Positions 5,030 to 57,626 of a DNA stretch of 64,000 nt are shown here, piece after piece. The translations under genes were made by a program, and so were the position numbers. The stretch is taken from NCBI GenBank assembly GCA_944380975.1, contig CALWJK010000002.1, positions 37,766 to 101,765 of the forward strand, read 5' to 3'. Position 1 is the first letter of the stretch; every line of letters begins with the position of its first letter. The stretch comes from an uncultured Agathobaculum sp. (GTDB lineage Bacteria > Bacillota > Clostridia > Oscillospirales > Butyricicoccaceae). A model generated the notes under the pieces. The model did no database searches. It had not been told where the DNA came from and saw nothing but the letters and a program-made list of their open reading frames with translations.

Positions 5030-5632
5030 ATGGAGCGACTGATCGAAATAAAAACGGTTCCGATAGAACTGGAGATGAAGGTAAACCATGCACGGCTGGA
5101 CTATAAGCGTTCGACGGTTGATTTGGAGATTTCCAGAAATCAGGGAGGCTTGCAGATTCGAAGCAAGCCGATCAAAGTGAATATCGACACGTTCGAGGCG
5201 CGCAATTCGGTGTCGCCGACTGCGATGCGGAGCATCGAACAGGCGGCGCAGCGCGGACAGCAAAAGGTTTACGACACCACTGCAACTTATGCTCGTCGGG
5301 GTGATTTACTCTTGGAGGCAAAGATCGGAGAACAGCTGATTTCTCAGTTTGCGATGGAATCGCAGCAGGTCAATACCGATTTTGCGATGAAGTGGCTGCC
5401 CACGACCGGACCGGATATTTCTTGGGATGGCGGGGAACTCAATATTCGGTATGAAATGGATAAGCTTAATTTCGACTGGCGGATGGATCAAGGAAACGTA
5501 GAATTCATTCCGGGCAACATTGAGTTTACTGTTACACAGCAGCCGGATGTTATCATCAAATATATTGGCGGGCCGGTCTACGTTCCACCGTCTGCAGATC
5601 CGGATTATGTGCCGTTAGATGAACAGGCTTAA
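5030..5632 (+). CDS. YviE-like conserved protein of unknown function (I recall this slot being classed as DUF6470)
   Basis: 200-aa ORF in the flgL-fliW slot that yviE occupies in B. subtilis. No catalytic motif recognised. Confidence 0.6.
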   Translation: MERLIEIKTVPIELEMKVNHARLDYKRSTVDLEISRNQGGLQIRSKPIKVNIDTFEARNSVSPTAMRSIEQAAQRGQQKVYDTTATYARRGDLLLEAKIGEQLISQFAMESQQVNTDFAMKWLPTTGPDISWDGGELNIRYEMDKLNFDWRMDQGNVEFIPGNIEFTVTQQPDVIIKYIGGPVYVPPSADPDYVPLDEQA

Positions 5633-6345: not shown

Positions 6346-6381
6346 CAAAAAATCCTGCGTCGGTTGACGCAGGATTTTTTT
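6346..6381. terminator. Bidirectional terminator between csrA and the convergent ComFB-domain gene
   Basis: 10-bp stem ATCCTGCGTC (6352-6361) / GACGCAGGAT (6366-6375) with loop GGTT. It is flanked by an A-run on the 5' side and a T-run on the 3' side. Confidence 0.8.
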
Positions 6382-6385
6382 GTAC

Positions 6386-7333
6386 TCAATGATGTGGATG
6401 CTCGTTGATGATGACGCAAGCACGCATCATTTGCACAGATAGTTCTTTTTCATAGCGGGCTGCATATACGCTCATATAAGCGGCGCGCTTGGATTTTTCC
6501 AGCACTACATATTTAGAGGGCAGATTGGTCAGCGCGAGTGCTTTCATATCGGCAATGCAGCGCTGGCATTGGCAATGCAGCATATTGGTGGTATAATACA
6601 CCGAAGTTTCCTCCGCCAATTCTTGCAGAACATTGGTATATTCTACGTCTTGTTCCCCAGTAGGGGTATAAATCTGCTCGGCAGGTGCTTCCGGCTGGGG
6701 CATTTTTACGGTAGGCTGTGCGGGTGCAGGAGGTTCGTCAGCAGAGGAAATAGCCTCAGGTGCGGGGGCTTGCGGAATCACTGGAGTCGGATCGGTTTCC
6801 GGTTCTGGGATAGATGCCGTCATGGCTTCTGACGCAGTGACCGGGCTCTCTTCGACCTCTTGCATCACAGTATCCTCTGCGACCGGCGTTTGGGATTCCG
6901 CAGCTGCGGGTGATTCGGACGGCTGCGCAGGTGCTTCCGCCTCAATCAGCGCCTGCAATAACCCTGATTTGATATCGTCGGAAACCTGTTGCTCCTTTTC
7001 CCGGACCGTTTGTACAATCGGGACTACGGGCTGTGGTGTAGGGACAGGGGCTGCCTGCGGCTGTTCTGCCGTAGGGAGTTCCTCGGAAACCACTGCAGGG
7101 GACTCCTGCGTTGGTTCGGCAGATACCGGGGCGGCTGACGCTGCTTTGGATGTTTTTTTGGGTTTGTTTGTGCTGGTGCGTTTTTTCTCCTTGGGGGGCT
7201 CTTCTGGTGTAGGCTGTGGTTCTACGGGAGCCGCCGGTGCAGCCGGCTGTTCTGGCTCGGCTGGCGTGGCTTCGCTGGGGGTTGTAATCAGATTCAACAC
7301 GCGTGCGGTTTTGTTACTGCGTTTTGATGCCAT
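6386..7333 (-). CDS. ComFB-domain protein with basic N-terminal peptide and ~200-aa P/A/E-rich disordered region
   Basis: The C-terminal ~90 aa carry a ComFB-type Cys cluster, HCQCQRCIADMKALALTNLPSKYVV. Residues ~20-224 are low-complexity Pro/Ala/Glu. The N terminus is MASKRSNKTARVLNLI. The gene starts 21 nt downstream of the ParA-like gene. Confidence 0.7.
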   Translation of the reverse strand: MASKRSNKTARVLNLITTPSEATPAEPEQPAAPAAPVEPQPTPEEPPKEKKRTSTNKPKKTSKAASAAPVSAEPTQESPAVVSEELPTAEQPQAAPVPTPQPVVPIVQTVREKEQQVSDDIKSGLLQALIEAEAPAQPSESPAAAESQTPVAEDTVMQEVEESPVTASEAMTASIPEPETDPTPVIPQAPAPEAISSADEPPAPAQPTVKMPQPEAPAEQIYTPTGEQDVEYTNVLQELAEETSVYYTTNMLHCQCQRCIADMKALALTNLPSKYVVLEKSKRAAYMSVYAARYEKELSVQMMRACVIINEHPHH

Positions 7334-7354
7334 TTTTAATTTTCCTTTCGTGGT

Positions 7355-8116
7355 TTAGGATTTATCAGCGAGGATTTCGTCTACAAGGGCAACAAAATCC
7401 ATAGCGGGCTTACAAGTGGGGGAATAAGAAACGATACTTTCCCCGTGTGCAGGCGCTTCTGCCACCATGACGCTTTGGCGGATTTTGGCCTCAAAAACTT
7501 TGGTGTCAAGCTGCTGGGCAATTTGCTGGGAGAGTTCCAGCACGTCGCGGTTGAGGTTCAAACGCGCGTTGAATTTGTTCAGCAGGATGCCGATGACCTT
7601 GAGGCTGGGGTTGTAATATTGCCGGACAGTTTCGATGGTCTCCTTGATCTGTGTTACACCCAGCAGGCTGAGGATTTCGGGGGCCATCGGGATGATGAGC
7701 TTGTCTGCGGCAACATATGCGTTAACGGTCAGCAAGTTGAGCGCCGGAGGCGTGTCGATGATGATATAGTCGTAGCGGTCAGAAACCAGAGAAAGCTCGG
7801 TTTTGAGCATATATTCGCGTCCAGGTTTGTTGCATTCCAGCTCTACACCGGAGAGCAGGATGTTGGAGGCGAGGAGGTCGCCATAGGTCATCGGGCAAAT
7901 GACCTGATCGATGGGAAGCTGTTTTTTGAATACTTCATACATGGTATGCACATTCTCAATGTCCACACCGAGGCTGAAACCAAGATTGCCCTGAGGGTCG
8001 AGATCGACGCCAAGAACTTTATATCCGCGCTCGGATAGCGACGCGATGAGAGCAGATGCTGTGGTCGTTTTTCCGACGCCGCCTTTCTGATTGGTGATGG
8101 CAATGATTTCCGCCAT
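7355..8116 (-). CDS. Orphan Soj/ParA-family ATPase (deviant Walker A)
   Basis: IAITNQKGGVGKTTTA (KGGxxGKT deviant Walker A) and VLGVDLDPQGN (ParA-type motif). ATG 8116 lies 8 nt after AGGAAG; the track start at 8125 is a GTG. No ParB gene is adjacent. Confidence 0.85.
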   Translation of the reverse strand: MAEIIAITNQKGGVGKTTTASALIASLSERGYKVLGVDLDPQGNLGFSLGVDIENVHTMYEVFKKQLPIDQVICPMTYGDLLASNILLSGVELECNKPGREYMLKTELSLVSDRYDYIIIDTPPALNLLTVNAYVAADKLIIPMAPEILSLLGVTQIKETIETVRQYYNPSLKVIGILLNKFNARLNLNRDVLELSQQIAQQLDTKVFEAKIRQSVMVAEAPAHGESIVSYSPTCKPAMDFVALVDEILADKS

Positions 8117-8165
8117 AGAAGACACTTCCTTATCTGAAAAAAATCTGAATATTCTCTTATGTTTA

Positions 8166-8193
8166 GTATACTACATGTCGAAATAAAAACATA
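8166..8193 (+). promoter_or_regulatory. Weak candidate sigma-28-type promoter of the fliD operon
   Basis: TTAT (8166-8169)-N16-GTCGAAAT (8186-8193). It has one core mismatch (CGAA instead of CGAT) and a spacing one nt longer than the other sites. Confidence 0.3.
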
Positions 8194-10918: not shown

Positions 10919-11290
10919 ATGGATATGCATGGCTACCAACAATACAAAGCGCAGTCAATCAATACGATGACGCCCGGCGAGCTGCTGATGCTGCTGTATG
11001 ACGAATTGATTAAGCGTTTGACCCGTGCGGAAATTGCATTGAAGAATGAAAATTTTGAGGTTTTTGATGAATCAATTATCCGTTGTCGGGAAATCCTAAG
11101 GTATCTGGATGATACGCTTGATATGCAGTATCCGATTAGCCATGATCTGCACCGTCTGTACGATTTCTTCTCCTATGAGTTGAGTCGTGTGCAGGCGGGG
11201 CGGAACGAGAAGGTTCTGGCCGAAGTAAAGCCCCGATTGACCGATCTCCGGGATACGTTCCGGCAGGCACAAAAGGCGGGCGGTGTATGA
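10919..11290 (+). CDS. fliS: Flagellin-specific chaperone FliS
   Basis: 123 aa. YQQYKAQSINTMTPGELLMLLYDELIKRL... is a typical FliS helix bundle. Follows fliD. Confidence 0.92.
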   Translation: MDMHGYQQYKAQSINTMTPGELLMLLYDELIKRLTRAEIALKNENFEVFDESIIRCREILRYLDDTLDMQYPISHDLHRLYDFFSYELSRVQAGRNEKVLAEVKPRLTDLRDTFRQAQKAGGV

Positions 11291-11661
11291 AAGAGCAGTG
11301 GATGAAGCTGCTGGTACAACTCAGAAAGCGTTATACGGCTTTGACAGAGACGTATGATTTAACCGTGCAGATGGGAGAGGCGCTGGACCGAAACGACCGC
11401 ACCTCTTTCAGCATGCTGTTATCCATGCGTCAGGAGCCTGTGCTTCGCATGCAGGAATTGGACGGCAATATCCGGCGCATTGTAGAAACTGATGCGCCGG
11501 ATATTGAAGTACGTTGGCAGGCACTGGTTGCTGGAGATACACCACGGGACGCAGATGAGCAGATGGTAGTAAATCAAATGCAGAAAAACAAGCGTGTGAT
11601 TGATCGTTTGGTACCGATTGATAGCAGAATCAATCGGGTGCTTACTGAAAGAAAGTCATAA
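11287..11661 (+). CDS. Helical protein in the fliT slot (FliT-like, positional call only)
   Basis: 124-aa ORF overlapping the fliS stop (ATGA). No diagnostic motif. Confidence 0.45.
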   Translation: MKEQWMKLLVQLRKRYTALTETYDLTVQMGEALDRNDRTSFSMLLSMRQEPVLRMQELDGNIRRIVETDAPDIEVRWQALVAGDTPRDADEQMVVNQMQKNKRVIDRLVPIDSRINRVLTERKS

Positions 11662-11662
11662 C

Positions 11663-12535
11663 GTGAGAAAAAAGAGCTGGACAAAACGAATAGGATTATG
11701 CTTTATGGCGGTTGCTTTCATTGGCGGAGCTGAGTTAGCGGCCAGCTATTGGCTTGACCCACCGATTTTCCATAAGATCGTTGATCCGATCATGGAGAAA
11801 ACGGGCGATTTGTGGCGCTTTGGAAGCGAGCAGGTGCGTGTGGCAGTGGACGGCGTGAAAGAGCGCATCGCAGAACGCAGTGCACTGCGGCAGGAGCAGA
11901 TCGAATCCCAGCGGGCAGGGGAACCAGCGATACCGGATGGCGGTGTGTTGATACAAGACCCTGCAATCACTGAACTGGTCACACGGGATGGGCAGGAAGT
12001 GCTCACGGGCGGTTCGGTGCCGATTGCGTATTTTGCGCAGAGTGACCCGGCTTGGAAGGATCAGCCGTATGGATCGGATAGCGTAGGCCCGTATGGCTGC
12101 GGGCCTACTGCCATGGCCATGGCAGTGAAGAGCCTGACGGGAACGGACACCGATCCAAAGCAGATGGCCAGCTGGTGTAGTCAAAACGGATATTGGGCTG
12201 CCGGAAGCGGGTCATATCATAGCATCGTGCGTGGTGTGGCCGATGCCTTTGGGTTGGAATGCGTTTCTCCAAGTTCTATGACACCGGAGGAATTGCGTAT
12301 ACAACTTTCCGGTGGCCGCATTGCGGTTGCACTAATGAGTGCCGGACATTTTACCAGCGGGGGACATTTTATCTTGCTACGTGGCGTAACACTGGATGGC
12401 AATATTCTAGTTGCTGATCCGAACAGTAGAGCACGTAGTCTGCAGGAATGGGACGCCTCCATTATTTTAAATGAATTAAGTTCCAGCAAAACGGCGGGCG
12501 CACCGCTTTGGCTTTTATCTAAGCAAATGGATTAG
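11663..12535 (+). CDS. Membrane-anchored papain-fold (Peptidase_C39-like) cysteine peptidase
   Basis: N-terminal signal-anchor RKKSWTKRIGLCFMAVAFIGGA. Candidate catalytic Cys in GPYGCGPTAMAMAV and His in TSGGHFILLRGV. AQSDPAWKDQPYG precedes the Cys, as in C39_2-type domains. GTG 11663 starts 1 nt after the upstream stop. Confidence 0.6.
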   Translation: MRKKSWTKRIGLCFMAVAFIGGAELAASYWLDPPIFHKIVDPIMEKTGDLWRFGSEQVRVAVDGVKERIAERSALRQEQIESQRAGEPAIPDGGVLIQDPAITELVTRDGQEVLTGGSVPIAYFAQSDPAWKDQPYGSDSVGPYGCGPTAMAMAVKSLTGTDTDPKQMASWCSQNGYWAAGSGSYHSIVRGVADAFGLECVSPSSMTPEELRIQLSGGRIAVALMSAGHFTSGGHFILLRGVTLDGNILVADPNSRARSLQEWDASIILNELSSSKTAGAPLWLLSKQMD

Positions 12536-15891: not shown

Positions 15892-16350
15892 TTGGGCACA
15901 CTCACGCAAGCAGAGATTCAAAATGTTTTGGATCAAGTCATGCAGGATATGACCAAGCGTATTGGTGGTATATGCCTGTGTAAACGGGATACTGTGCTTT
16001 CCAGTGACATGTGTACAATCTATACTACGTTTGAAGGAAGTTACCGTGGCGCTTTGATATTATGTGCGGACACCACGTTTTGGGCCCGTCTGGCACGTTA
16101 TGTCATGCAGGAAGATACAGTAGATCCAAATGACTTTGAGGATCTTGCGAAAGAATATTTTAATGTCGTCTGTGGGCAAATTGCGGCCGGGCTGTATCGT
16201 CTTTCGCATAGTCCATCCCGTTTCCGCATCCCGGTATTTTATATGGGACGTTATATCCCCATAGAGGATGATGGAACGCAGAATGTCATCAATTATGCGA
16301 GCGACCAAAATGAAGGGGCACAACTAATTCATCAATTGATCTCTGCATAA
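15892..16350 (+). CDS. cheX: CheX-type CheY-P phosphatase
   Basis: Exact CheC/CheX/FliY active-site pattern D-X3-E-X2-N-X22-P, as DLAKEYFN(22 aa)P at residues 84-114. TTG start lies 7 nt after AGGAGG. Confidence 0.75.
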   Translation: MGTLTQAEIQNVLDQVMQDMTKRIGGICLCKRDTVLSSDMCTIYTTFEGSYRGALILCADTTFWARLARYVMQEDTVDPNDFEDLAKEYFNVVCGQIAAGLYRLSHSPSRFRIPVFYMGRYIPIEDDGTQNVINYASDQNEGAQLIHQLISA

Positions 16351-16387
16351 AAGTATTTGCAGATGATATATGAAAAGGAGTTATATT

Positions 16388-16756
16388 ATGTCAAAGAGAG
16401 TCATGGTAGTAGACGATTCTCGTATCGTTCACATGCAGCTGAAGAAGATTTTGGCGGATACAGACTATCAGATCGTTGCATGCTGCCAAAGTGGGGAAGA
16501 GGCTCTGGAGAAATATGGCGAAGTTGAGCCGGATCTGGTGACAATGGATATTCTGATGCCGGGCATTGATGGGTTGGAAACAGCGCGTCAGCTTTTAAAA
16601 GCGCATCCGCATGCCCGTATTCTGATGGTCTCCTCGCTCGCCTATGACGATACCATCAACGAAGCACATGATGTTGGTGTGAAGGGATTTGTGTATAAGC
16701 CGTTTGAGCGCAGCCAGATACTTGAGTCGATGTCGCATGCGTTGTGTGATGCATAA
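16388..16756 (+). CDS. Single-domain CheY-like response regulator
   Basis: Receiver motifs VMVVDDS, DLVTMDILMPGIDG, MVSSL and KGFVYKPF. AAAGGAG precedes ATG 16388. Confidence 0.88.
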   Translation: MSKRVMVVDDSRIVHMQLKKILADTDYQIVACCQSGEEALEKYGEVEPDLVTMDILMPGIDGLETARQLLKAHPHARILMVSSLAYDDTINEAHDVGVKGFVYKPFERSQILESMSHALCDA

Positions 16757-17069: not shown

Positions 17070-18620
17070 ATGAGAATCCAACATAACATTATGGCAATGA
17101 ATGCCTACCGCAATTATTCCAACAACACTTCGGCTCTGTCTAAGAACCTCGAGAAGCTGTCTTCCGGTTACAAGATCAACCGTGCTGGCGACGACGCGGC
17201 TGGTCTGGCGATTTCTGAGAAGATGCGTGCCCAGATCACCGGTCTGGAAACCGCTCAGAAGAACGCGAAGGACGGTATCTCCCTCGTTCAGACCGCTGAA
17301 GGCGCGCTGACTGAAGTTCATGACATGCTCAACCGTATGGTCGAGCTGGCTAACCAGTCTGCAAACGGCACCTATGACAACGAGACCGACCGTGCGAACC
17401 TCCAGAAGGAAGTTGAGCAGCTGAAGAGCGAAATCGACCGTATTGCTGATTCCGCAAACTTCAACGGCATCAAGCTGCTGGACGGCTCGCTGAGCGAGAG
17501 CGGCAACAAGAGCATTGAGATCTCCGGCATTGCGACAACCTTTGCGCAAGGCAGCGCAAGCATTGCGTCGACTTCGGCGTCGTTGGCTGCATCTACTGCG
17601 ATTGGTGCTGGTTTTGCATCTGGTGACACGATTGAGCTTACCCTTGCTGTTGACAACGGCAAGAGCTACAGCATCAAGCTGACGCGCGATGGCAATACGC
17701 TGGTTGACGAGAATGGCAAGTCTTATAAGATTTCCTCCACGGCAAAGGCTTCGGAGGTCAATGCGGCGATCGCCGGCGCGATCAAGGATGCAACCGGTGG
17801 CGCATTTACTGCAACCGGTGGTATTGGCTCTAAGTTGACTATTACCAGCACAGAGACCGGTGCAAACGCCCCGTCGGTGACCGGTATTACCGGTTCTGTT
17901 GATGGCACGGCAGCATCAGTCACTACGACTGTAAATGCGCCGGTGGCGGATAAGATTAACATTGCATCTAATGCTATCACGGCAGCCGGCACTAATGCTA
18001 CGGCTTCGGCTGTAACGGTCTTTACCATCAATGGACAGAAGTTTGCGCTGGCTGCTACCGATGCTGCACTGGATCATGTACAGAAGCTGGCAGGCGATGA
18101 TGTCAAGGTTGTTATCGGTGCTAACATTGGTGAAGCTGCGCAGCAGTTGGCAGATGCTACCGGTCTGAATATTGAGAAGCAGGTCGGCAATAATGGTATT
18201 TCGATCAGCACTGCCAGCGGCAAGGCGCTGACCCTGCAGATCGGCGATACCTCTGATTCCTACAACAAGCTGCAGGTATCCGTTCAGGATATGCACACTG
18301 GTTCGCTCGGCATCGCGGGCATCGACATTGGCACGCAGGACGGCGCTGCTGCGGCAGTTGACCTCATCAAGAATGCAATCAATATCGTTTCTGACGTACG
18401 TGGTACGCTTGGTGCTACCCAGAACCGTCTGGACCACACCATCAACAACCTGTCCGTCATGACTGAGAACATTCAGGATGCTGAGTCCACCATCCGCGAC
18501 ACCGACGTTGCAGACGAGATGATGGCTTACACCAAGAACAACATTCTGGTTCAGTCTGCGCAGGCTATGCTGGCACAGGCCAATCAGGTTCCGCAGGGCG
18601 TTCTCCAGCTCCTGCAGTAA
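17070..18620 (+). CDS. fliC: Flagellin (516 aa) with S/T/A-rich central variable domain
   Basis: Conserved N terminus [15 protein letters not shown]...[18 protein letters not shown]. Conserved C terminus [15 protein letters not shown]...[23 protein letters not shown]. Confidence 0.97.
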
Positions 18621-18653
18621 GCCAAACCAACAGTTTAGTTCAACCATACAGAG

Positions 18654-18682
18654 CGGGGCGGGCATTTGCCCGTCCCGTTTTT
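18654..18682 (+). terminator. Terminator hairpin after flagellin gene
   Basis: 10-bp G/C-rich stem 18654-18663 / 18668-18677 (one G-U pair) with a 4-nt loop, then only TTTTT. The next ORF region starts 6 nt later. Confidence 0.7.
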
Positions 18683-18708
18683 CTGTAATGGATAAAGGAG
18701 AGTCCGGA

Positions 18709-20646
18709 ATGAGCAGTAATACAATTGATCTTGCTCGTCGTTTAGCAGAGTTAGGACAGAAAGAGGATGCGCAGCAGGCTTATCTTATGGTTCTGCAGGA
18801 GGTTTCTGAGAAACAGCCGGAATTGGAGATGGAAGCTGCCAGCTTTATCTTTTTTTCAGAGGGCGATTATCAAATCGCCTACACAACATTTGTTTCTTTA
18901 TATAATCGTGGTTTCTATCAGGCTGAACTGATGGATTTGATGACACAGGCGTTTTATCTGCCGAATGTTGCCGAGCAGATGAAGCGATATGAACAGAATT
19001 GTGAGCGGTTAGGACGTTATCCTTATCTGTTTCGTAAGGATTTTTTGGCATTTGGTGATCTGCCGATTAAGTTTTTTCCCTTCAATGATGAAGGATATAT
19101 CCCGTATTATAAAGCGGAAAATCGGTTTGGTAGCTATGTGAATTTTAACGATCCGGTGATCGACCGCTATTTCTTTAATGATTTGGAAAATCCCATCCTT
19201 GCAAAGGATGTTTATTCACAATATCAGTTAGAGTACTTGACCGATAACGTACGTAAAAGTGAGTGGGTCGGTCGGGAAAATCACATATATTTGCATTACA
19301 CAGATTGGGCAGTATTTTGTGCCTATTTGCAATGCCTTTCTATCTATAATTTGTTGCGAGACAGCAAACAGGTGTTTTTGATTGGAAATGAAGTGTCACA
19401 GTATCCGATTGATTTCAAAGAGCGTTTTGGAATTGATTATAGTAAATATCCTGTCAAGCCGGTCAGTATCCGAGAGGTAAACCGCCTGATTTGGCACACG
19501 CAGCTTGCAGCACATAACGGCGGCGACTTCTTTAATGAAATTTTTTATGGCCATCCGAATTTGCTGTCATTTGAGTCGATTTTGTTTGATACAGTTTTGT
19601 CTCAGATTAAAGAATATCGCGAGCAGTTGAAGAAAAAGCGTTGTAAATCAAAGCTTGGTATTCAACTTTCTCAGCTTCAACATCCAACAGACAAGGATTT
19701 TTTGGTTGCGTTGTTTTTAGAAACCGCACCGGATTCTGTTCATACATGCCGGATTGCACCTGCACTTTTTTTCCAACCCCATTTCCATAATGTGATATGC
19801 GAAATGCGTGTTGATGACAAAACAGGAAAAACATTATTGTATTCTGAGCAGTTTGATGAACTTTCTAAGTCCTCTATTTTCCAGCATTTTAAGTATATCA
19901 AGACCTTTACTCCAATGAGGCGTATTACGACAAGTTATGCGGCAACCATTCGTTTTATGAGAAACTCTAATTTTCAGAGTAGTGACGCTGTTACCCCTGA
20001 TGTAATGGCTGAAAGGTTGCTGAATCGGAGTTTTATGGTTGATCGCTATAATCGTTTGTATCGAGATAGCGTGCTTGTCCGTTTTGAGGATGGTAAGTTA
20101 AATCCTAAGGCAACATTTACTGCATTAGCTGAGTTTTTGGATATTCCTTATACGGAAAGTATGACATATTGCTCTAGTAAAGATGGGATTAATCCTGAAT
20201 CATTAAAAGGTAATGTGCGTGGCTTTGATACAGCTACTGTTTATCGAACCTATGATGAATTCGCAAATGATGACGAGCGTGCCTTTATTGAGTATTTCAT
20301 GCGGGATGCTTATGAATATTATGGATATGATTTTCAGTATTATAAGGGTGAACCTGTCGATGAGCAATGGGTGACTAATAAAATTAAAGGATTTACTTGC
20401 ATTAATGAAGTCATAGAAAAATCGTGGGAAGATAATTTGTTGTCAAAGAAGGATGAAGAACAGCAATATGAGGACATTGTTGCGCAGGCAAAGCGAGTGA
20501 CGGAAAATTATGATGAGAATCGTATGAATATTGCGCATCTTCTGATGAGAGGCTTGCGCTTTGTTAACAAGCAAGGCCAGCCGCTGCACATGATGATGCC
20601 GCTTCGTCTTGACCCGGATCTTCTGGAGCAGCCGCTCTATCACTAA
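18709..20646 (+). CDS. Two-part protein: TPR-like helical N-terminal half plus sulfotransferase-like C-terminal half
   Basis: C-terminal half: G-rich loop plus FYGHPNLL (in the 5'-PSB position), TPMRRITTSYAA (resembling the 3'-PB R-x-P...S motif), and VLVRFEDGKLNPKATFTALAEFLDIPY (resembling the YEDLxxxPxxxxxxxxxFLGL tail of sulfotransferases). ATG 18709 lies 8 nt after AAAGGAG. Confidence 0.45.
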   Translation: MSSNTIDLARRLAELGQKEDAQQAYLMVLQEVSEKQPELEMEAASFIFFSEGDYQIAYTTFVSLYNRGFYQAELMDLMTQAFYLPNVAEQMKRYEQNCERLGRYPYLFRKDFLAFGDLPIKFFPFNDEGYIPYYKAENRFGSYVNFNDPVIDRYFFNDLENPILAKDVYSQYQLEYLTDNVRKSEWVGRENHIYLHYTDWAVFCAYLQCLSIYNLLRDSKQVFLIGNEVSQYPIDFKERFGIDYSKYPVKPVSIREVNRLIWHTQLAAHNGGDFFNEIFYGHPNLLSFESILFDTVLSQIKEYREQLKKKRCKSKLGIQLSQLQHPTDKDFLVALFLETAPDSVHTCRIAPALFFQPHFHNVICEMRVDDKTGKTLLYSEQFDELSKSSIFQHFKYIKTFTPMRRITTSYAATIRFMRNSNFQSSDAVTPDVMAERLLNRSFMVDRYNRLYRDSVLVRFEDGKLNPKATFTALAEFLDIPYTESMTYCSSKDGINPESLKGNVRGFDTATVYRTYDEFANDDERAFIEYFMRDAYEYYGYDFQYYKGEPVDEQWVTNKIKGFTCINEVIEKSWEDNLLSKKDEEQQYEDIVAQAKRVTENYDENRMNIAHLLMRGLRFVNKQGQPLHMMMPLRLDPDLLEQPLYH

Positions 20647-20660
20647 AGAGGGAGAACGCC

Positions 20661-21800
20661 ATGGATAACAAAGGAACGGTTTATTTTTTTACGGGTCTTT
20701 CTGGTGCAGGAAAGACCACGATTGGCGGTTTGTTTTATCAGCGCCTGAAAAAGACCAAGCCCAATGCGGTTTATCTGGATGGAGACGAGATGCGCCCTGC
20801 ATTTGGTGAGGATATTGGCTATACGCACGAGGAGCGGCTGCGCTGGGCAGGACGAATTTTTCGTGTCTGTCAATTGCTTTCTAATCAGGGAATTGATGTG
20901 GTTTGCTGTAGTATTGCGATGTTTGCAACAATACGGCAGTGGAACAGGGAAAATATCGCCAACTACAAGGAAATCTATATCAAGGTTAAAAAGGAGACAC
21001 TCCTGTCCCGCAATCAGAAAGGCTTATATACGGCAGGACATAATGTGGTAGGTGTGGATTTGCCGTTTGACGAGCCGAAAAATCCGGATCTAATCGTGCA
21101 AAATGATGGCGATGAGAGCCCGATAGAGGTTGTTAAGCGGATTGAAAAGATCTTGTATCCGTGTATTGTGCAGAATCCGATTGACAATACGGCATATTGG
21201 AATCAATACTATCAAAATCGTATTTGTTCTACAGAGCCGTCGCCGTTTGCACGTTATGTCGCAACTTTGGTAGATCCAGGGAAAACACTGGTGGATTTGG
21301 GCTGTGGAAATGGCAGAGATTCTTTGTTTTTTGCTGATATTGGTTTGAATGTGTTGGCGATTGATCTTTCGGATACAGCGATACAGCAGCAGGATATTTC
21401 TGAAAAGAGCAATATCAGATTCTTATGCGATGACTTCGTCAATTGCGAGGAACATCAACCGGAAACGTATGATTATGCTTACAGTAGGTTTACTATTCAT
21501 TCCATCAACGTCAATCAGGAGCAGCTTTTGCTGCAAACCATGTACCGGTCGTTGAAAAAAGGTGGTAAATTCTTTATTGAAGTTCGCAGTGTAAAAGATC
21601 CTCTCTATGGAAGAGGAGAAGCGCTGGAAAGAAATGCATTTTATTACGATAATCATTATCGGCGTTTTATCGTGATGGATGAGCTGATAGACCGCATGAA
21701 AGAACAAGGGTTTTTAATTGAGTATGCCGAAGAAAAAACCGGTTTTGCGCCATATGGGAATGACGATCCTCCGATTATCCGAGTGGTTGCAAAAAAGTAG
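20661..21800 (+). CDS. Fusion of APS-kinase-like (CysC-family) domain and class I SAM-dependent methyltransferase
   Basis: The N-terminal domain aligns by eye with CysC: VYFFTGLSGAGKTTIG, YLDGDEMR, DIGYTHEER, QKGLY. The C-terminal domain has SAM motif I, LVDLGCGNGRDSLFFA, plus KKGGKFFIEV. Confidence 0.7.
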   Translation: MDNKGTVYFFTGLSGAGKTTIGGLFYQRLKKTKPNAVYLDGDEMRPAFGEDIGYTHEERLRWAGRIFRVCQLLSNQGIDVVCCSIAMFATIRQWNRENIANYKEIYIKVKKETLLSRNQKGLYTAGHNVVGVDLPFDEPKNPDLIVQNDGDESPIEVVKRIEKILYPCIVQNPIDNTAYWNQYYQNRICSTEPSPFARYVATLVDPGKTLVDLGCGNGRDSLFFADIGLNVLAIDLSDTAIQQQDISEKSNIRFLCDDFVNCEEHQPETYDYAYSRFTIHSINVNQEQLLLQTMYRSLKKGGKFFIEVRSVKDPLYGRGEALERNAFYYDNHYRRFIVMDELIDRMKEQGFLIEYAEEKTGFAPYGNDDPPIIRVVAKK

Positions 21801-21811
21801 AGGGTTAGGCA

Positions 21812-22642
21812 ATGAAAAATAGGATGATGGTTGATCTGCATACCCATACTTCGGCTTCCGATGGACAGTATAGCCCGTCTCAGGTAGTAGAAATGGCAAA
21901 ACGGGCAGGAATTACTTGTCTAGCCATTACAGACCATGACACGATATCCGGATTGCAGGAGGCGCAAGCAGCAGGCAAGGAATACGGTATATCGGTTGTG
22001 CGGGGAATCGAATTGGGTGCAAAGGAAGACCGGCATTTGCATATTGTTGGACTGGGCTTTTGCGAGAACGCCACAGAATTGCAGCTGCTTTGCAATAAGC
22101 TGCGGCAAAGTAGAGATGAACGCAAGTATCGTATCGTGGATTTCCTACGGGAAAAAGGAATAGAGGTTTCGCTGGATGAGGTCACCGAGTTGGCCGGCGG
22201 AGAGGTGATTGCGCGACCGCATTTTGCACAGGTGATGTTACGGCACGGCTATGTATCTTCGATACGTGAGGCATTTGACCGCTATTTGGACACTGATGAG
22301 TATCAGCGTATCGAGCGTTTCAAAGCGTCTGCGGCAGAGTGTATTGAGGTGATTCATCAAGGTGGCGGAAAGGCAGTGCTCGCGCATCCGTATCAGCTTG
22401 GAATGCCGGATGATGCTTTGGAGCAGATGATCGCTCGGCTTAAAGCGGAAGGTTTGGACGGAATTGAATGCTATTATCCGCAGCATACACCAGAAATGAC
22501 CCAGCGCTATCTGGAGTTCGCGCAAAAGTATGCGTTATATGTCTCAGGCGGCAGTGATTTTCATGGGGAAGCAGTACATCCAGACAATTTGTTAAAGCCA
22601 ATTCCGCTGGATATATCTTGGCTGTTAGGGTTTGCTACATAA
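21812..22642 (+). CDS. PHP-domain phosphoesterase (TrpH/YciV-like; candidate 3',5'-bisphosphate nucleotidase)
   Basis: VDLHTHTSASDG, AITDHDT, LAHP and GGSDFHG are PHP metal ligands. The gene starts 11 nt after the upstream gene. Confidence 0.75.
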   Translation: MKNRMMVDLHTHTSASDGQYSPSQVVEMAKRAGITCLAITDHDTISGLQEAQAAGKEYGISVVRGIELGAKEDRHLHIVGLGFCENATELQLLCNKLRQSRDERKYRIVDFLREKGIEVSLDEVTELAGGEVIARPHFAQVMLRHGYVSSIREAFDRYLDTDEYQRIERFKASAAECIEVIHQGGGKAVLAHPYQLGMPDDALEQMIARLKAEGLDGIECYYPQHTPEMTQRYLEFAQKYALYVSGGSDFHGEAVHPDNLLKPIPLDISWLLGFAT

Positions 22643-48475: not shown

Positions 48476-50551
48476 ATGAAGCGACTTTTTGACAACGTAA
48501 TATCGGTGTTTGTCGTGGTCATCGTATTGTTCTTGTTGATCCCTCTGCCGCCGTTTCTGTTGGATGTATTTTTTATCATCAATATCTCTCTGGCGCTGAT
48601 TATTCTGCTGATTACCATGAATACTCATGAGCCGTTGGAGTTTTCGATTTTCCCATCGCTGCTGCTGATTACCACGCTGTTCCGGTTGGGACTGAACGTA
48701 TCTTCCACTCGTCTGATTCTTTCCAATGGCGGTGAGGCAGGACAGGTCATCAAGGTTTTCGGTGAATTTGTTATTCAAGGCAATGTGGTCATCGGTGTCA
48801 TCATCTTCCTGATCATCGTTTTGATGCAGTTCATCGTTATCACCAAGGGCGCGGAGCGCGTTGCTGAGGTAGCAGCTCGCTTTACGCTGGATTCGATGCC
48901 CGGCAAGCAGATGGCGATTGACGCGGATTTGTCGTCCGGCCTGATCAATGAGCAGGAAGCAAAGCTGAGACGATACAAGGTGCAGCGCGAAGCGGACTTC
49001 TACGGCGCAATGGACGGTGCTACCAAGATCGTCAAGGGCGACGCGATCATGTCTATCATCATCACGTCGATCAACTTTATCGCCGGCTCCATTATTGGTA
49101 TTGTTCAGTCTGGTATGGAGCTGAGCGAAGTACTCAGCGTTTATTCGATTGCAACGATCGGTGACGGTCTGGCTTCCCAGTTGCCGGCGCTGATGATTTC
49201 CACGGCAACCGGTATGATCGTCACCCGTGCGGTTTCTGAGGGCAGCTTGAACAACGACGTGATCAAGCAGTTCCTTGCGCAGCCGCAGTCTTTGATGATT
49301 GCCGGTTTGATTCTGGCTGTGTTTGCGATTTTCCCTGGCACGCCTCATATCCAGTTGATTCTGATTGCAGCGGCGCTGATTCTGGTCAGCCGTCGTGTGG
49401 CGCATCAAATGGAGGCGTTGCAGAAAGAGAAGGAAGAATTGCCTGCGGCGCAGGAGGCTGCCCGAAAACAGGCAGAAGCGCAGCAAAGCGAAATGGATTA
49501 TTACAAGGATGTCAACAATATCTATTCGCTGATCAATGTTGAACCAATTGAGATGGAATTTGGTTACAGCCTGATTCCTTTGGTGGATGAGTCGCGCGGC
49601 GGTAAGCTCATCAGCCGAATTGTTATTTTCCGCCGGCAATATGCGCAGGATATGGGCTTTGTGGTGCCGTCGATTCGTCTGCGCGATGCGTCTATGCTGG
49701 GCACCAACCAATATGTCATCAAGATCAAGGGTGAAGAAGTGGCCCGCGGCGAAATTCTGCTGGATTATTATCTTGCCTTGGAGCCTGCGAATCCGGCGGG
49801 CGAAATTGAGGGCATTGAAACGATTGAGCCAGCATACGGCATTCCGTCTCGTTGGATTTTGCCGGAAAACAAGGAAATGGCCGAGATTTATGGCTATACG
49901 GTCATTGATCCCTTGTCCGTTATGCTGACACACCTGTCTGAGACGGTTAAAAAGCACACCTATGAGCTGCTCAACCGTGCAGAGACCATTCAGCTGGTGG
50001 AGAATCTCAAGCGTTCTGCGCCGCAGCTGGTGGAAGAAGCCTTTCCAGGTGTGGTGTCCTATGCTATGCTGGAGAAGATTCTTTGCAATCTGCTGAAGGA
50101 AGGCATCCCGATCAAGGATATGGGAACGATTGTGGAGACCACGGTCGATGCCTTGGCCATCACCCGCGATGTCGATTTGATTACAGAGAGCGTGCGTGCG
50201 CAGCTCAAGCGTACCATCACGCACCGGTTCTGTGAGGACGGTCGTCTCAGCGTCATCACGCTGGACGCAGAAGTAGAGAAAAAGATTGTTGCCAGCCTGA
50301 CCAAAAACGATCAGGGTGTATACCTTGCGTTGGGACCGGATCTGATGCAGAAGCTGCTGTCACAGCTCAACGAGCACATCAAAAAGTTCTCGGAGTTGTC
50401 ACAAAAGCCGATTCTGCTCACCAGCCATATCATCCGGATCTATTTGAGCCGTTTGCTGGAGCAGTTCTATCCGGATCTTACCGTACTGTCTTTTAATGAG
50501 GTGATTACGAGCGTACAGATACAGGCGCTGGGCAATATCACACTTTCGTAA
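48476..50551 (+). CDS. flhA: Flagellar export gate protein FlhA
   Basis: 691 aa. Contains the conserved FHIPEP-region sequence EVAARFTLDSMPGKQMAIDADL. Confidence 0.97.
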   Translation: MKRLFDNVISVFVVVIVLFLLIPLPPFLLDVFFIINISLALIILLITMNTHEPLEFSIFPSLLLITTLFRLGLNVSSTRLILSNGGEAGQVIKVFGEFVIQGNVVIGVIIFLIIVLMQFIVITKGAERVAEVAARFTLDSMPGKQMAIDADLSSGLINEQEAKLRRYKVQREADFYGAMDGATKIVKGDAIMSIIITSINFIAGSIIGIVQSGMELSEVLSVYSIATIGDGLASQLPALMISTATGMIVTRAVSEGSLNNDVIKQFLAQPQSLMIAGLILAVFAIFPGTPHIQLILIAAALILVSRRVAHQMEALQKEKEELPAAQEAARKQAEAQQSEMDYYKDVNNIYSLINVEPIEMEFGYSLIPLVDESRGGKLISRIVIFRRQYAQDMGFVVPSIRLRDASMLGTNQYVIKIKGEEVARGEILLDYYLALEPANPAGEIEGIETIEPAYGIPSRWILPENKEMAEIYGYTVIDPLSVMLTHLSETVKKHTYELLNRAETIQLVENLKRSAPQLVEEAFPGVVSYAMLEKILCNLLKEGIPIKDMGTIVETTVDALAITRDVDLITESVRAQLKRTITHRFCEDGRLSVITLDAEVEKKIVASLTKNDQGVYLALGPDLMQKLLSQLNEHIKKFSELSQKPILLTSHIIRIYLSRLLEQFYPDLTVLSFNEVITSVQIQALGNITLS

Positions 50552-50581
50552 GTTTTGATTTAAGATTAGGGGGGAAACGCC

Positions 50582-51364
50582 TTGGGATCACAAAATGATT
50601 GGGAGCAGATGACGAATGAGGCGCTTCTCGAAGAATATAAGCAAACCGGAGACCCTGAACTGAAGAAGGTCCTCGTGATGCGGTATTCCTATCTTGTAAA
50701 AAATGTAGCATTGAAGCTGAGAGGGGTTTATTTAAGCTTCGCTCAGGTCGATGATATGATTAATGAGGGAATTATTCTGCTGATGGGCGCGCTGGATAAA
50801 TTTGACCTGAGCCAGAATGTCAAGTTTGAAACCTACGTTTCCAAACGCCTGCGCGGCATGATTATTGACTTGGCGCGCCGTCAGGATTGGCTGCCGCGGT
50901 CGGTTCGGAAGCGTATGCGTGAAATTGATACGGCGAGCAGCGAATTGTTTTCTCAGCTGGGCCGTGCGCCAACCGATAAGGAAATTGCCGACCATATGGG
51001 ACTGAGCGAGGCGCGCTATCAGGAGGAACTGGCAAAGACGGCGCTCTGCAATGTGTTGTCGCTCGACATGCTGTTGGACGAACGGGATTCCGATGTTCCG
51101 GCAAAGCACCTGCCGCAATCGGATGCGGATGCGCAGCCAGAGGAGAATTATCAAAAAAAAGAGCTGTATGAAGAGCTAAAACGAAGCATCAGTGAACTGC
51201 GTGAAAAGGAACAGATGGTTTTGTCCTTGTATTATCAAAAATCTTTTCAGATGAAGGAAATTGCGCAGGTGCTCGGTGTGAGCGAACCGCGCGTATCACA
51301 GATACATTCCAATGCGATCCGCAAGCTGCGAATCTCAATGCAAAAATATATATACGGTACATAA
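50582..51364 (+). CDS. fliA: Flagellar sigma factor sigma-28 (FliA/SigD)
   Basis: Region 2 (DDMINEGIILLMGALDKFD), region 3, and region 4 HTH (MKEIAQVLGVSEPRVSQIHSNAIRKLR). TTG start after AGGGGGG. Confidence 0.93.
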   Translation: MGSQNDWEQMTNEALLEEYKQTGDPELKKVLVMRYSYLVKNVALKLRGVYLSFAQVDDMINEGIILLMGALDKFDLSQNVKFETYVSKRLRGMIIDLARRQDWLPRSVRKRMREIDTASSELFSQLGRAPTDKEIADHMGLSEARYQEELAKTALCNVLSLDMLLDERDSDVPAKHLPQSDADAQPEENYQKKELYEELKRSISELREKEQMVLSLYYQKSFQMKEIAQVLGVSEPRVSQIHSNAIRKLRISMQKYIYGT

Positions 51365-54018: not shown

Positions 54019-54954
54019 ATGCAGGAAAATGAACGCGGTAAAATCTTGCTGGAATCCGGTACGAACGAGATCGAGATCATGCAGTTTACGATTGATGATA
54101 ACTTGTATGGTATCAATGTGGCAAAGGTAAGGGAGATCATGATGAGCGCTCCCGTCAAGTCGATGCCGCATGCGCATCCTGCGGTCGAGGGCATCTTCAA
54201 GCCCCGCGATACGGTTCTGACGGTGGTCGATCTGCCGTATTACCTGACGGGTAAGCGGTCTGAGCCGGATCCAAAGCATTTGTTTATCGTAACCAATTTC
54301 AATAAAATGTACATTGCCTTCCGCGTGCATACGGTGGTTGGTATCAGCCGTATTTCGTGGACCGCGATCCAAAAGCCGGATAAGACCATTTCCGGCGGGG
54401 AAGAGGGCGTGGCAACCGGCATTGCGCAGTGTGATGACCAGCTGGTAACCGTGCTGGATTTTGAAAAGATCGTGGCGGAAATTGCGCCGGAAACCACCAT
54501 CCAGATGAAGGAAATCGAGAGAATGGGCAACCGCGTTGACCGGGATTGCCCCATCCTGATCGCAGAAGATTCGATTTTGCTTTCGCGCATGATTCAGGAA
54601 GCGCTGAATAAGGCGGGATATACGAATTTGACCATGTTTGCCAATGGACAGGAGCTTTGGGATTATATCAGCCCGTTGGCAAAGGAGCCGGATTCGCTTT
54701 CGAAGAAGGTCGCGATGGTTATTACGGATATCGAAATGCCGAGCATGGATGGACATCGCCTTACTAGGCTGATTAAGTCGGATAATGTGCTGAAACAGGT
54801 GCCGGTCATTATCTTCTCTTCGCTTGTCACGGAGGAAATGAGAATCAAAGGCAAGCAGCTCGGTGCAGATGAGCAGTTGTCCAAACCGGAAATCGGTCAT
54901 TTGGTGGACGTGATGGATGGGCTGCTGGAGCGTCGAGGCAATAGCACGAATTGA
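54019..54954 (+). CDS. cheV: Chemotaxis coupling protein CheV (CheW-like plus receiver domains)
   Basis: N-terminal CheW-like domain (LYGINVAKVREI) and a C-terminal receiver (ILIAEDS, VITDIEMPSMDG, SKP). Confidence 0.9.
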   Translation: MQENERGKILLESGTNEIEIMQFTIDDNLYGINVAKVREIMMSAPVKSMPHAHPAVEGIFKPRDTVLTVVDLPYYLTGKRSEPDPKHLFIVTNFNKMYIAFRVHTVVGISRISWTAIQKPDKTISGGEEGVATGIAQCDDQLVTVLDFEKIVAEIAPETTIQMKEIERMGNRVDRDCPILIAEDSILLSRMIQEALNKAGYTNLTMFANGQELWDYISPLAKEPDSLSKKVAMVITDIEMPSMDGHRLTRLIKSDNVLKQVPVIIFSSLVTEEMRIKGKQLGADEQLSKPEIGHLVDVMDGLLERRGNSTN

Positions 54955-54974
54955 GGAAAACGGGGGCGGCAACC

Positions 54975-56252
54975 ATGGAAAGAAGCAGATTCATCGTAAG
55001 ACAGGCCATTAAGGATGCGGATAACCACATCCTTGGGTATGAAATCAAATATTCCGGCAGCGAAGCTTATGGCGGGGAAAGCGGAAACGATATTTCGGCA
55101 GCGGAAACGATTTACAACTTTTTGATGCAAAATTCAGAAAAAGGACTTCGTGATTCCCGCAGCTTTATGACATTTACCAGCTCTCTGCTGGCCAAGCGGA
55201 CGCCACACTTGTTTAAAAGCAAGGATCTGGTGATTCAAATTGATGACAGCGTGATCATCCATCCGTTTGCGATGCATTTGGTGCAGCAATATGTCAAGGA
55301 AGGTTATGAAATCGCGGCCAATGATTTTCAGTTCATGCCGAGATATCTGGCGTTGATGGAGTACCTGGCTTATATCAAGATCGATTTGAAGGAGATGAGT
55401 CAGGCATCGGCGGAAAACATCATGCGGGTAGCGCATAGCATGCACAAAAAAGTTATTGCGACCGGCGTGGATACGCAGGAACTGCGTGATATGGCGATTA
55501 GCTTGGGCGTTTATGGCATGCAGGGTACATATGTTGCCGATCAGATGGCCAACAAAGTGCATCAGAGCACCTATCTGCGCAGCAATTTCTTCCGTCTGGT
55601 GGTTGCGGTCACAAGAGAAGAGCCGGATATCCATGAGATTGAGCAGATTGTATCGACCGATGTTACACTGTCGTACAGCCTGTTGAAAATTGCAAACTCT
55701 GCGTATTTTGCGCGCAGAACACAGACGACCTCGATTCAGCAAGCCATTGTAACGCTGGGTCTGAGCCAGCTCAAGCGTTGGGTTTATCTGTTGAGCGCAG
55801 GAGATCAGGATGAGGAGCAATTGGGCGACTCTGAAGAGTTTATCAAGATTTCCTTTATGCGCGCCAGCTTTGCAAGCGAGCTGCAGAAGTATATTAAGAA
55901 GCCCGTGCTGACACGCTCGGAGGCGTATCTGCTTGGTATGTTCTCAACCTTGGAGTATTTGATTGATGCACCGATGGAAGAGATTATCGCAGATATCCCG
56001 ATGGTGGATGAACTGAAGAACGCACTGCTTCGTCATGAGGGTCAAGGCGGTCTGCTGCTGGAGCTGGTTATCAGCTATGAAAAGGCTGACTGGAAGAACA
56101 TTACTGCGGATGCAGAAGAGCTTGGTATCCCGTCTGCGCAGCTGGCGACTATTTACTTTAACTGCATGGAAGAGGTCAACCGGATTTGGGATCAGATGCT
56201 GAATCCGTCTCCGGCGGCAAAACAAGAGGTTGCGGAGCAACCCTTGGAATAA
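54975..56252 (+). CDS. Degenerate EAL plus HDOD domain protein (likely non-catalytic c-di-GMP sensor)
   Basis: The EAL-fold order is retained but key positions are altered: YEIKY for YE(A/L)LxR, ANDFQF for DDFGTG, ATGVDTQE for EGVETxE. The HDOD-like segment is VSTDVTLSYSLLKIANSAYFARRTQTTSIQQAIVTLG. Confidence 0.7.
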   Translation: MERSRFIVRQAIKDADNHILGYEIKYSGSEAYGGESGNDISAAETIYNFLMQNSEKGLRDSRSFMTFTSSLLAKRTPHLFKSKDLVIQIDDSVIIHPFAMHLVQQYVKEGYEIAANDFQFMPRYLALMEYLAYIKIDLKEMSQASAENIMRVAHSMHKKVIATGVDTQELRDMAISLGVYGMQGTYVADQMANKVHQSTYLRSNFFRLVVAVTREEPDIHEIEQIVSTDVTLSYSLLKIANSAYFARRTQTTSIQQAIVTLGLSQLKRWVYLLSAGDQDEEQLGDSEEFIKISFMRASFASELQKYIKKPVLTRSEAYLLGMFSTLEYLIDAPMEEIIADIPMVDELKNALLRHEGQGGLLLELVISYEKADWKNITADAEELGIPSAQLATIYFNCMEEVNRIWDQMLNPSPAAKQEVAEQPLE

Positions 56253-57624: not shown

Positions 57625-57626
57625 TT

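Follow-up and report, generated by a model that had tools for sequence, protein, structure and literature searches.

A ParA-type ATPase gene and its ComFB-domain partner gene in flagellar loci of Oscillospirales and Lachnospirales

Here, we describe a two-gene module in a flagellar gene cluster of an uncultured Agathobaculum sp. Both genes lie on the minus strand; the first encodes a ParA-type ATPase (hereafter ParA) and the second a partner that ends in a ComFB domain, which we call ComFBx. The window, that is, the whole stretch that was analysed, comprises 64,000 nucleotides (nt) of contig CALWJK010000002.1 (assembly GCA_944380975.1, positions 37,766 to 101,765), and all coordinates refer to it. 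To all appearances, the pair is an accessory system, so far undescribed, that serves flagella or chemotaxis. In full-text literature searches, neither a ParA-ComFB pair nor synteny of ComFB with fliD was found described, and a survey paper on ComFB reports flagellar neighbourhoods and names no ATPase partner. The parts of the module are as follows.

7355..8116, minus strand: ParA/Soj-type deviant-Walker-A ATPase of 253 amino acids (aa) from the ATG at 8116, identified by Pfam and PDB matches and by invariant K11, K16, and D40
7334..7354, minus strand: intergenic spacer of 21 nt, an operonic junction, with ribosome-binding site AAAGGAAA; the gaps between ParA and partner are short in related loci too
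6386..7333, minus strand: ComFBx, 315 aa, consisting of N-terminal tag, disordered region 1, conserved helix, disordered region 2, and ComFB domain
7283..7333, minus strand: N-terminal basic/hydrophobic peptide of ComFBx, aa 1-17 (MASKRSNKTARVLNLIT), the proposed ParA-docking, ATPase-stimulating tag
6935..7036, minus strand: central motif and amphipathic helix of ComFBx, aa 100-133 (PQPVVPIVQTVREKEQQVSDDIKSGLLQALIEAE), with I121 and L125 invariant and kept in ParA-less relatives
6389..6652, minus strand: C-terminal ComFB domain of ComFBx, aa 228-315, with four invariant Cys and a C-terminal P-H-H

The ATPase and the conservation of the pair

An earlier note on this DNA described a ParA with KGGVGKTT and DLDPQGN motifs that is followed after 21 nt by a 315-aa partner, and the sequence confirms this. 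The ParA open reading frame (ORF) extends at most over 7355..8125 (-), with a GTG as alternative start at 8125; the ATG at 8116, preceded by AAGGAAG, is the likely start and gives the N-terminus MAEIIAITNQKGGVGKTT...DLDPQGN. The partner sequence opens with MASKRSNKTARVLNLI and also includes HCQCQRCIADMKALALTNLPSKY.

ParA is a member of the ParA/MinD deviant Walker A superfamily. It matches the Pfam families AAA_31 (2e-52) and CbiA (6e-29), and its closest PDB matches are ParA 8RAY (2e-48), 4PFS, HpSoj, and TtSoj (E 1e-37 to 2e-48), with MinD at ~1e-18. Identity to B. subtilis Soj is 40% end to end, measured against a Soj sequence whose R189/K201/R215/R218 numbering agrees with PMC6393308. Within and beyond the motif NQKGGVGKTT, the signature lysine K11, the Walker A lysine K16, and D40 are invariant among 67 orthologues; with these residues in place, ParA should bind ATP, dimerise, and hydrolyse it. 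The protein starts 10 residues before the P-loop and stops where Soj stops, and it has no N- or C-terminal extension fit for an FlhG activator motif or a MinD-type membrane helix. It is thus a Soj-like core, with neither the activator motif nor the C-terminal amphipathic helix by which FlhG/FleN proteins are recognised.

Two regions of the ATPase deserve attention. Directly after DLDPQGN, the residues L45-G46-F47 are invariant in this ParA clade and absent from B. subtilis Soj. In HpParA, the equivalent loop (L50-G51-F52) clamps Arg9 of the ParB N-terminal peptide, and the HpParB peptide MAKNKVLGRG docks on HpParA with its Lys, Leu, and Arg in contact with this loop (PMC11229316). We take the shared HpParA-type loop as a lead that may point to peptide docking. 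The second region is the DNA-binding patch, formed in B. subtilis Soj by R189, K201, R215, and R218 (PMC6393308). The equivalent of R189 is R185, an Arg in 61 of the 67 orthologues. The other three positions are never basic in any of the 67: K201 corresponds to A200 (Ala in 64), R215 to Q214 (Q/S/T/A in the clade), and R218 to M217 (A/S/M/V in the clade). An invariant R213 adjoins the R215 position, and the further basic residues K181 and R190 are kept.

For the comparison with other genomes, one genome per GTDB species was scanned with the family alignment, which gave 223 confirmed relatives. The best 80 of these 223 hits were taken for comparison of their loci, and 79 loci were kept. Loci were retrieved with two patterns, the tag itself and ComFB, the latter of which recovered the ParA-less loci, and their gene content was determined by tblastn with the window proteins. 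They come from Agathobaculum, Butyricicoccus, Acutalibacter, Lawsonibacter, Pygmaiobacter, Evtepia, Anaerotignum, Mediterraneibacter, Dorea, other Lachnospiraceae and Oscillospiraceae, and Clostridium sp. ASF356, that is, from the orders Oscillospirales and Lachnospirales.

In 67 of the 79 loci, the gene immediately upstream of the ComFB gene encodes a ParA orthologue (52-98% identity); three of the remaining loci are cut by contig ends, and nine are complete and have no ParA. Recurrence of the same pair, with the same flagellar surroundings, in 67 of 79 species-level loci goes far beyond what chance would give. ParA is conserved far better than its partner (e.g., 76% vs. 33% in locus L010), as is typical of ATPase/adaptor pairs.

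The absence of a ParB gene, first noted within the window, extends to all of these loci. The ParB box II motif was found neither in the 64-kb window nor in any of the 79 loci; there, in place of the adjacent ParB (GERRxRA box II) and parS that define a ParABS system, the neighbours are flagellar genes. Likewise, there is no second deviant-Walker-A protein in the window and no second ParA/MinD-like gene in any related locus. These results bear on an alternative in which ParA is an ordinary Soj/ParA of chromosome or plasmid partition, its ParB is encoded elsewhere, and ComFBx is an incidental neighbour. The full-length resemblance to B. subtilis Soj and the top PDB matches to chromosomal ParA/Soj speak for it, and relatives of ParA carry the database name "chromosome partitioning protein." However, this explanation has to contend with strict synteny with ComFBx and flagellar genes in 67 loci of two orders, with the loss of ParA together with the N-terminal peptide of its partner (see below), with the missing ParB motif, and with K201, R215, and R218 equivalents that are never basic in the clade, and we give it very little credence. 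The synteny and the linkage of peptide and ParA instead support the idea, raised in the earlier note, of a ParA with a dedicated partner that is not a chromosome-partition Soj.

The partner, its N-terminal peptide, and its ComFB domain

A homologue search with ComFBx over 5.8 billion proteins yielded 107 relatives, nearly all of which bear a ComFB domain; the few with a name are annotated as "late competence development ComFB family protein" and come from Agathobaculum or Butyricicoccus. Their alignments reveal three conserved modules separated by hypervariable Pro/Ala/Glu/Thr-rich stretches. An AlphaFold2 model of ComFBx, built on an 87-sequence alignment, has a weak helix at aa 8-17 (predicted local distance difference test, pLDDT, ~60), a confident helix at aa 106-133 (pLDDT ~90), and the ComFB domain at aa 228-315 (pLDDT ~95); outside these three elements the pLDDT is <50. 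The description of about 200 aa of Pro/Ala/Glu-rich disorder given in the earlier note therefore stands as to composition (P 20%, A 16%, E 14%) and has to be amended in that the conserved helix at aa 106-133, part of a central motif with the consensus PQPVVPIVQxVREKEQxLSDxIxSGLLxAL, splits the region into two linkers. In Agathobaculum, the first linker has a lysine-rich patch, KEKKRTSTNKPKKTSK, amid acidic sequence (7187-7234, minus strand; aa 34-49 region, aa 47-62). The second linker of ComFBx has a net charge of -16.

The first of the three modules is the N-terminal tag, which contains the basic peptide KRSNKTARVLNLI and has a net charge of +4 over aa 1-17. Its consensus is M-x-x-K-R-S-N-K-T-A-R-V-L-N-L-I, with K8, T9, V12, and L13 invariant in a 27-sequence alignment (A1). 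A relaxed form of the motif, K-[TS]-x-[RHK]-[VIL]-[LM]-x-[LMV]-[ILMV], is encoded directly downstream of ParA in 67 of 67 ParA loci and on the coding strand of none of the nine complete ParA-less loci. The only apparent exceptions (L046, L058, and L074) stem from runs of masked N; in the same three loci, the partner seemed to be split into two genes, a candidate that was rejected, as such runs in the repeat-rich linker mimic two ORFs.

The ParA-less proteins are 172-249 aa long and begin shortly before the central helix, so that the helix and the ComFB domain are kept. In a neighbour-joining tree of the ComFB domain they fall into two separate clades, one of which has a ParA-containing sister (L025). 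The tree thus indicates that ParA and tag have been lost or gained together at least twice, with the helix-plus-ComFB core persisting. Such co-occurrence is as expected if the peptide is a ParA-interaction element, and it bears out the earlier proposal of a basic N-terminal peptide as a ParA-linked tag. Comparison of peptide position 11 (R or H) with the columns of the ParA alignment brought out clade-specific differences only, none of them common to the independent R-type loci L016 and L079.

The partner of a ParA/MinD ATPase acts via an N-terminus that is disordered and positively charged, and its gene usually adjoins that of the ATPase (PMC10241942). ComFBx has both features, namely a gene 21 nt from that of the ATPase and a short positively charged N-terminus whose presence is linked to that of ParA; the contact between the two proteins is a prediction.

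A different function for the peptide should also be considered. It might be a flagellar type III export or chaperone signal. In that case, ComFBx would be secreted as a disordered regulator in the manner of FlgM, and ParA would be either a neighbour unrelated to it or a targeting factor. ComFBx is indeed largely disordered, and its gene sits among those of late export substrates and chaperones (FlgK, FlgL, FliD, FliS, FlgN-like, and FlgM). Yet the peptide is gone exactly where ParA is absent, and the genomes concerned retain the export apparatus (FlhA and FlhB in L020, L040, L043, and L049), which argues that it is not an export signal. A folded, metal-binding domain with four Cys would also be an unlikely export substrate, and overall we find this explanation highly improbable.

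The C-terminus of ComFBx is a true ComFB domain with the four-helix fold of that family. Pfam ComFB (PF10719) scores 37 bits over aa 236-313, against a cut-off of 25. Searched with Foldseek, the model matches B. subtilis ComFB (BsComFB; 4WAI) with a template-modelling (TM) score of 0.77 and a root-mean-square deviation of 2.3 Å, and CdgR (8HJA) with a probability of 1.0. The family profile matches 4WAI at E 8.5e-4; a single-sequence search of ComFBx against PDB sequences returned nothing relevant, and the family profile and the fold search were required. ComFBx is not an orthologue of BsComFB, because it scores 19.7 bits with the NCBIfam equivalog for that protein and 120 are needed. Invariant or nearly so in the domain are four Cys (C254, C256, C259, and C306), D262, A265, K274, Y275, and the terminal P-x-H. 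The "ComFB-type Cys-cluster domain" of the earlier note is hereby confirmed by both Pfam and fold, with the correction that the conserved set consists of these four Cys.

Whether this domain responds to cyclic di-GMP (c-di-GMP) is a separate question. BsComFB binds c-di-GMP via D33, N40, and K41 together with A36, L37, V47, and Y55, and its D33A and N40A variants are strongly impaired (PMC12448109). When these contact residues were mapped by profile alignment to 4WAI and 8HJA, the equivalents D262, A265, L266, and V276 proved to be conserved. The equivalent of N40 is T269 (T in 62, S in 12, and N in 5 of 79 relatives), and that of K/R41 is N270 (N in 53, G in 17, and S in 8), which is never K/R in the 79. 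The equivalent of Y55 is uncertain; Y290 is conserved in 76 of 80. Because the canonical N40-K/R41 dyad is replaced, nucleotide binding cannot be assumed, and the earlier suggestion of cyclic-dinucleotide control through the ComFB domain finds no support here. The invariant K274 and near-invariant Y290 might compensate for the replaced dyad.

The window does encode c-di-GMP-related proteins. As previously noted, such genes close the core operon: an EAL-HDOD gene comes at its end, then HD-GYP and PAS-GAF-GGDEF-EAL genes. An orthologue of the EAL-HDOD gene also adjoins the pair in 22 related loci and lies directly upstream of ParA in four of them. The EAL-HDOD protein (54951-56252, plus strand), encoded by the last gene of the fla/che operon, matches only the C-terminal half of EAL (profile positions 104-234); it is probably a c-di-GMP-related protein without catalytic activity. 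After the flagellar operon (56377-60781, plus strand) come the genes for an HD-GYP-type (HD_5) protein and a PAS-GAF-GGDEF-EAL protein of 1020 aa, which make up a local c-di-GMP turnover module.

It is in this light that a regulatory switch should be weighed, in which ComFBx is a c-di-GMP-gated motility inhibitor and ParA sequesters or releases it, or sets its oligomeric state, with no spatial patterning. There is precedent in that c-di-GMP-bound BsComFB inhibits flagellar function (PMC12448109; bioRxiv 10.1101/2025.07.11.664319). The occurrence of the ComFB core without ParA in two clades, the eroded DNA-binding patch of a ParA that has no membrane helix, and the synteny of c-di-GMP genes with the pair are all consistent with a switch. 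On the other hand, the N40-K/R41 dyad is absent from the whole clade, ParA keeps R185, R213, and the extra basic residues K181 and R190, and in the cases studied, ParA-family ATPases whose partners carry a tag act as spatial regulators (PMC10241942). We consider a switch possible, with the odds clearly against it.

The flagellar setting

The genes around the pair are flagellar in the window and in its relatives. In nearly all 79 loci, fliD-fliS is adjacent: it either diverges from ParA, which is the arrangement in the window, or comes directly after ComFBx. The main operon has the order flhA-fliA-flgF-flgG-cheC-cheD-cheV, often with the EAL-HDOD gene next, and in at least 35 loci its end abuts the pair. 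The pair continues this fla/che operon in 12 loci, and in many others the operon converges on the pair. The gaps were measured in three loci and are 20 nt (L026) and 8 nt (L031) after cheV, and 12 nt (L027) after the EAL-HDOD gene.

The earlier note also held that flhF/flhG are missing from the core operon. This is correct for the window (48476-51364) and for every related locus showing both flanking genes: flhA is directly followed by fliA, with no flhF/flhG between. The association of the pair with motility loci lacking flhF/flhG at the canonical site is likewise borne out across the related loci. Since the same flhA-fliA adjacency holds in the ParA-less loci, ParA is not simply an FlhG replacement, and this candidate explanation is weakened. 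A paper on the motility loci of Roseburia and Eubacterium mentions neither flhF/flhG nor ParA (PMC3720852).

The che genes raise the possibility that the cargo is chemotaxis clusters rather than flagella, with chemoreceptor arrays positioned as by ParC/ParP (Vibrio) or PpfA/TlpT (Rhodobacter). In 12 loci, ParA lies directly after cheC-cheD-cheV in one operon, and several methyl-accepting chemotaxis proteins (MCPs) and che genes are encoded in the window. ParC and PpfA are likewise encoded in che operons. Nevertheless, ComFBx contains no domain of the CheW, AIF, or MCP type, it is fliD-fliS and not the che genes that accompanies the pair constantly, the second ParA-less clade still has cheC-cheD-cheV, and the sole functional data on a Firmicutes ComFB protein concern flagellar activity. 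Array positioning is therefore unlikely in our view.

Within the window, the plus-strand genes that converge on the pair encode FlgM, an FlgN-like protein, FlgK, FlgL, a DUF6470 protein, FliW, and CsrA; those that diverge from it, also on the plus strand, encode FliD, FliS, a small conserved ORF, and a C39-like peptidase. The earlier placement of the pair convergently after csrA, where B. subtilis has hag, is correct, and the flagellin gene lies 9 kb off, at 17070-18620. Two further features flank the pair.

6347..6380, no strand assigned: hairpin with A- and T-runs on both sides, a 15-pair stem with a minus-strand T-run, predicted to be an intrinsic terminator
8154..8186, plus strand: conserved sigma-28 (FliA/SigD)-type promoter toward fliD, CTCTTAT-N16-GTCGAAAT, unique in the window and conserved across both orders

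From its structure, the hairpin would act as terminator for the pair and, on the opposite strand, for csrA. Because it separates the ComFBx stop codon from the converging csrA, the pair would be a self-contained two-gene operon. The promoter element reads TTAAx-N15/16-G(T/C)CGATAA elsewhere, and the same consensus, CTTAA-N15-GCCGATAA, occurs between ComFBx and fliD in co-directional loci. Its TCGA core and AGTATACT spacer are palindromic and unusually conserved, the core overlaps the region where the ParA promoter must lie, and a sigma-28-like reading toward ParA is present in 7 of 51 loci; on these grounds the element may be a shared bidirectional promoter for both divergent genes. A reading of it as the ParA promoter was dropped, as by comparison with the co-directional loci it is best taken for the sigma-28-type promoter of fliD. 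No match to the strict B. subtilis SigD consensus occurs in the window. What supports membership of the pair in the flagellar regulon, proposed in the earlier note, is the continuity of the operon in other species rather than a promoter mapped in the window.

Several other genes in the window may be of interest to those annotating such clusters. The fliD ORF begins mechanically at TTG 8259, and the ATG at 8277, behind GGAAGGAG, is the likelier start (plus strand). The DUF6470 protein (5030-5632, plus strand) is encoded between flgL and fliW, the position of B. subtilis yviE, and has 50-99% identity in related loci. After fliS (11287-12535, plus strand) comes a 124-aa ORF without a Pfam match, in the position of a FliT-/FlgN-like chaperone, and next a protein with a C39-like peptidase domain; both are kept beside fliS in most of the 79 loci. 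Directly upstream of flagellin (15892-16756) are the genes for CheX and a single-domain response regulator. The flagellin (516 aa), a 652-aa protein without a Pfam match, an APS-kinase/methyltransferase fusion, and a PHP-domain protein follow one another at 17070-22642 (plus strand) and may form a flagellin-modification cluster. A scan of the whole window with Rfam found no riboswitch and no other RNA family.

A proposed role and its relation to known systems

With a probability of roughly 60%, we read the pair as a cognate ParA/MinD-family ATPase and partner dedicated to the flagellar/chemotaxis apparatus of Oscillospirales and Lachnospirales. Its working can be pictured as follows. Having bound ATP, ParA would form a sandwich dimer, as its intact signature lysine and Walker motifs suggest. 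ComFBx would dimerise via its Zn-stabilised ComFB domain and so display two N-terminal basic peptides on long, flexible Pro/Ala/Glu tethers; once docked on the ParA dimer, these would stimulate its ATP hydrolysis in the way of ParB, MinE, and McdB. The ComFB domain and the central helix would bind a target, most likely a flagellar component and less likely the chemotaxis machinery. A flagellar target is proposed by analogy with BsComFB, which inhibits flagellar function and not flagellar synthesis and whose own target is unknown (bioRxiv 10.1101/2025.07.11.664319; PMC12448109). The ParA cycle might then set where or when ComFBx acts, and the output could be how many flagella there are or how they are spaced, or a motility brake that is delivered or withheld. 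Modulation by c-di-GMP, via ComFBx or via the syntenic degenerate EAL-HDOD protein, is the weakest step of the scheme.

Several points weigh against such a role. The Soj DNA-binding patch in ParA is short of two to three of its four basic residues; because it is so reduced, nucleoid-based positioning is not assured, and no membrane-targeting helix is apparent in the protein. The co-loss of peptide and ParA amounts to two independent events only, and to judge from the ParA-less relatives, the ComFB core works without ParA. The loci compared come from the best 80 of the 223 hits. In addition, with the N-K/R dyad replaced, cyclic-dinucleotide control via the ComFB domain is doubtful. Of the original proposal of a ParA and adaptor that serve flagella or chemoreceptor arrays under cyclic-dinucleotide control, what holds is a dedicated pair tied to motility loci; the nucleotide control is the doubtful part. 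A bolder version of our reading, in which gut Clostridia without FlhF/FlhG organise their flagella by a ParA-driven system not recognised before, is for now speculative, and we would not bet on it. In this version, a Soj-derived ATPase would pattern or deliver ComFBx, and ComFBx would act on the flagellar motor or the basal body; c-di-GMP might be what it responds to, by way of ComFBx itself or of EAL-HDOD.

The pair can be set beside a number of known systems. Similar in design are McdA/McdB and other ParA/MinD pairs of an ATPase and an adjacent partner (PMC10241942), in which a small ParA-type ATPase is encoded directly upstream of a mostly disordered partner that has a short positively charged N-terminal peptide and diverges much faster than the ATPase. 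Unlike McdB, ComFBx ends in a ComFB domain and its locus is flagellar, not carboxysomal; ParA here keeps the signature lysine, and only part of the DNA-binding patch is retained. MinD/MinE shares the same overall design. In common with Soj/Spo0J (ParABS), the pair has the ATPase sequence and motifs and a partner peptide that is basic and then hydrophobic, as in HpParB, whereas neither ParB nor parS is nearby, ComFBx is devoid of ParB domains, and most of the Arg/Lys for nonspecific DNA binding are lost.

Among motility systems, ParC/ParP and PpfA/TlpT (the latter from Rhodobacter sphaeroides) resemble the pair in having a ParA-like gene inside a motility/chemotaxis operon with the partner gene adjacent, as where ParA directly follows cheV in 12 related loci. 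They differ from it in that ComFBx is without a CheW-like, AIF, or MCP domain and the constant neighbours are fliD-fliS. FlhF/FlhG (FleN, YlxH) likewise involve a ParA/MinD-family ATPase in flagellar gene clusters, and the pair-bearing genomes have no flhF-flhG between flhA and fliA. In contrast to FlhG, ParA here is Soj-like and not MinD-like, and its 253 aa are the length of Soj, with no activator extension or amphipathic helix; nor is it a one-for-one replacement, given that ParA-less relatives are without flhF/flhG as well.

Finally, ComFBx shares with BsComFB and the cyanobacterial CdgR/SyComFB, which are c-di-GMP/c-di-AMP receptors (PMC12448109, PMC10068817), the ComFB fold and the Bacillota-type Cys cluster, and the equivalents of D33, A36, L37, Y46, and V47 of BsComFB are conserved. 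It departs from BsComFB by ~230 extra N-terminal residues (tag, disordered regions, and helix), by an operonic ParA, and by the change of N40-K/R41 to T/S-N/G/S in its clade, where K274, Y290, and the C-terminal P-x-H are invariant or nearly so. Linkage to late flagellar genes is another trait in common. By analogy, the ComFB link to late flagellar genes appears to be old in Firmicutes, because B. subtilis comFB lies immediately upstream of flgM-flgK-flgL-fliW-csrA.

The ATPases of the ParA/MinD family position chromosomes, plasmids, carboxysomes, chemoreceptor arrays, the divisome, and polar flagella, and a new class of partner means a new cargo. In the module described here, a ParA tag is joined to a domain from ComFB, a family whose binding of c-di-GMP and inhibition of flagellar function were shown only recently. 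The module is kept across many abundant motile gut Clostridia, whose flagella and flagellins matter for host immunity. It offers a testable route to the action of ComFB on motility, and to the control of flagella number and placement in peritrichous Firmicutes that have no FlhF/FlhG. If flagellar organisation in these bacteria is indeed driven by ParA, then ComFBx would be the first ParA/MinD adaptor built on a second-messenger-receptor fold, and the target of ComFBx would also reveal the target through which ComFB inhibits motility in Bacillus.

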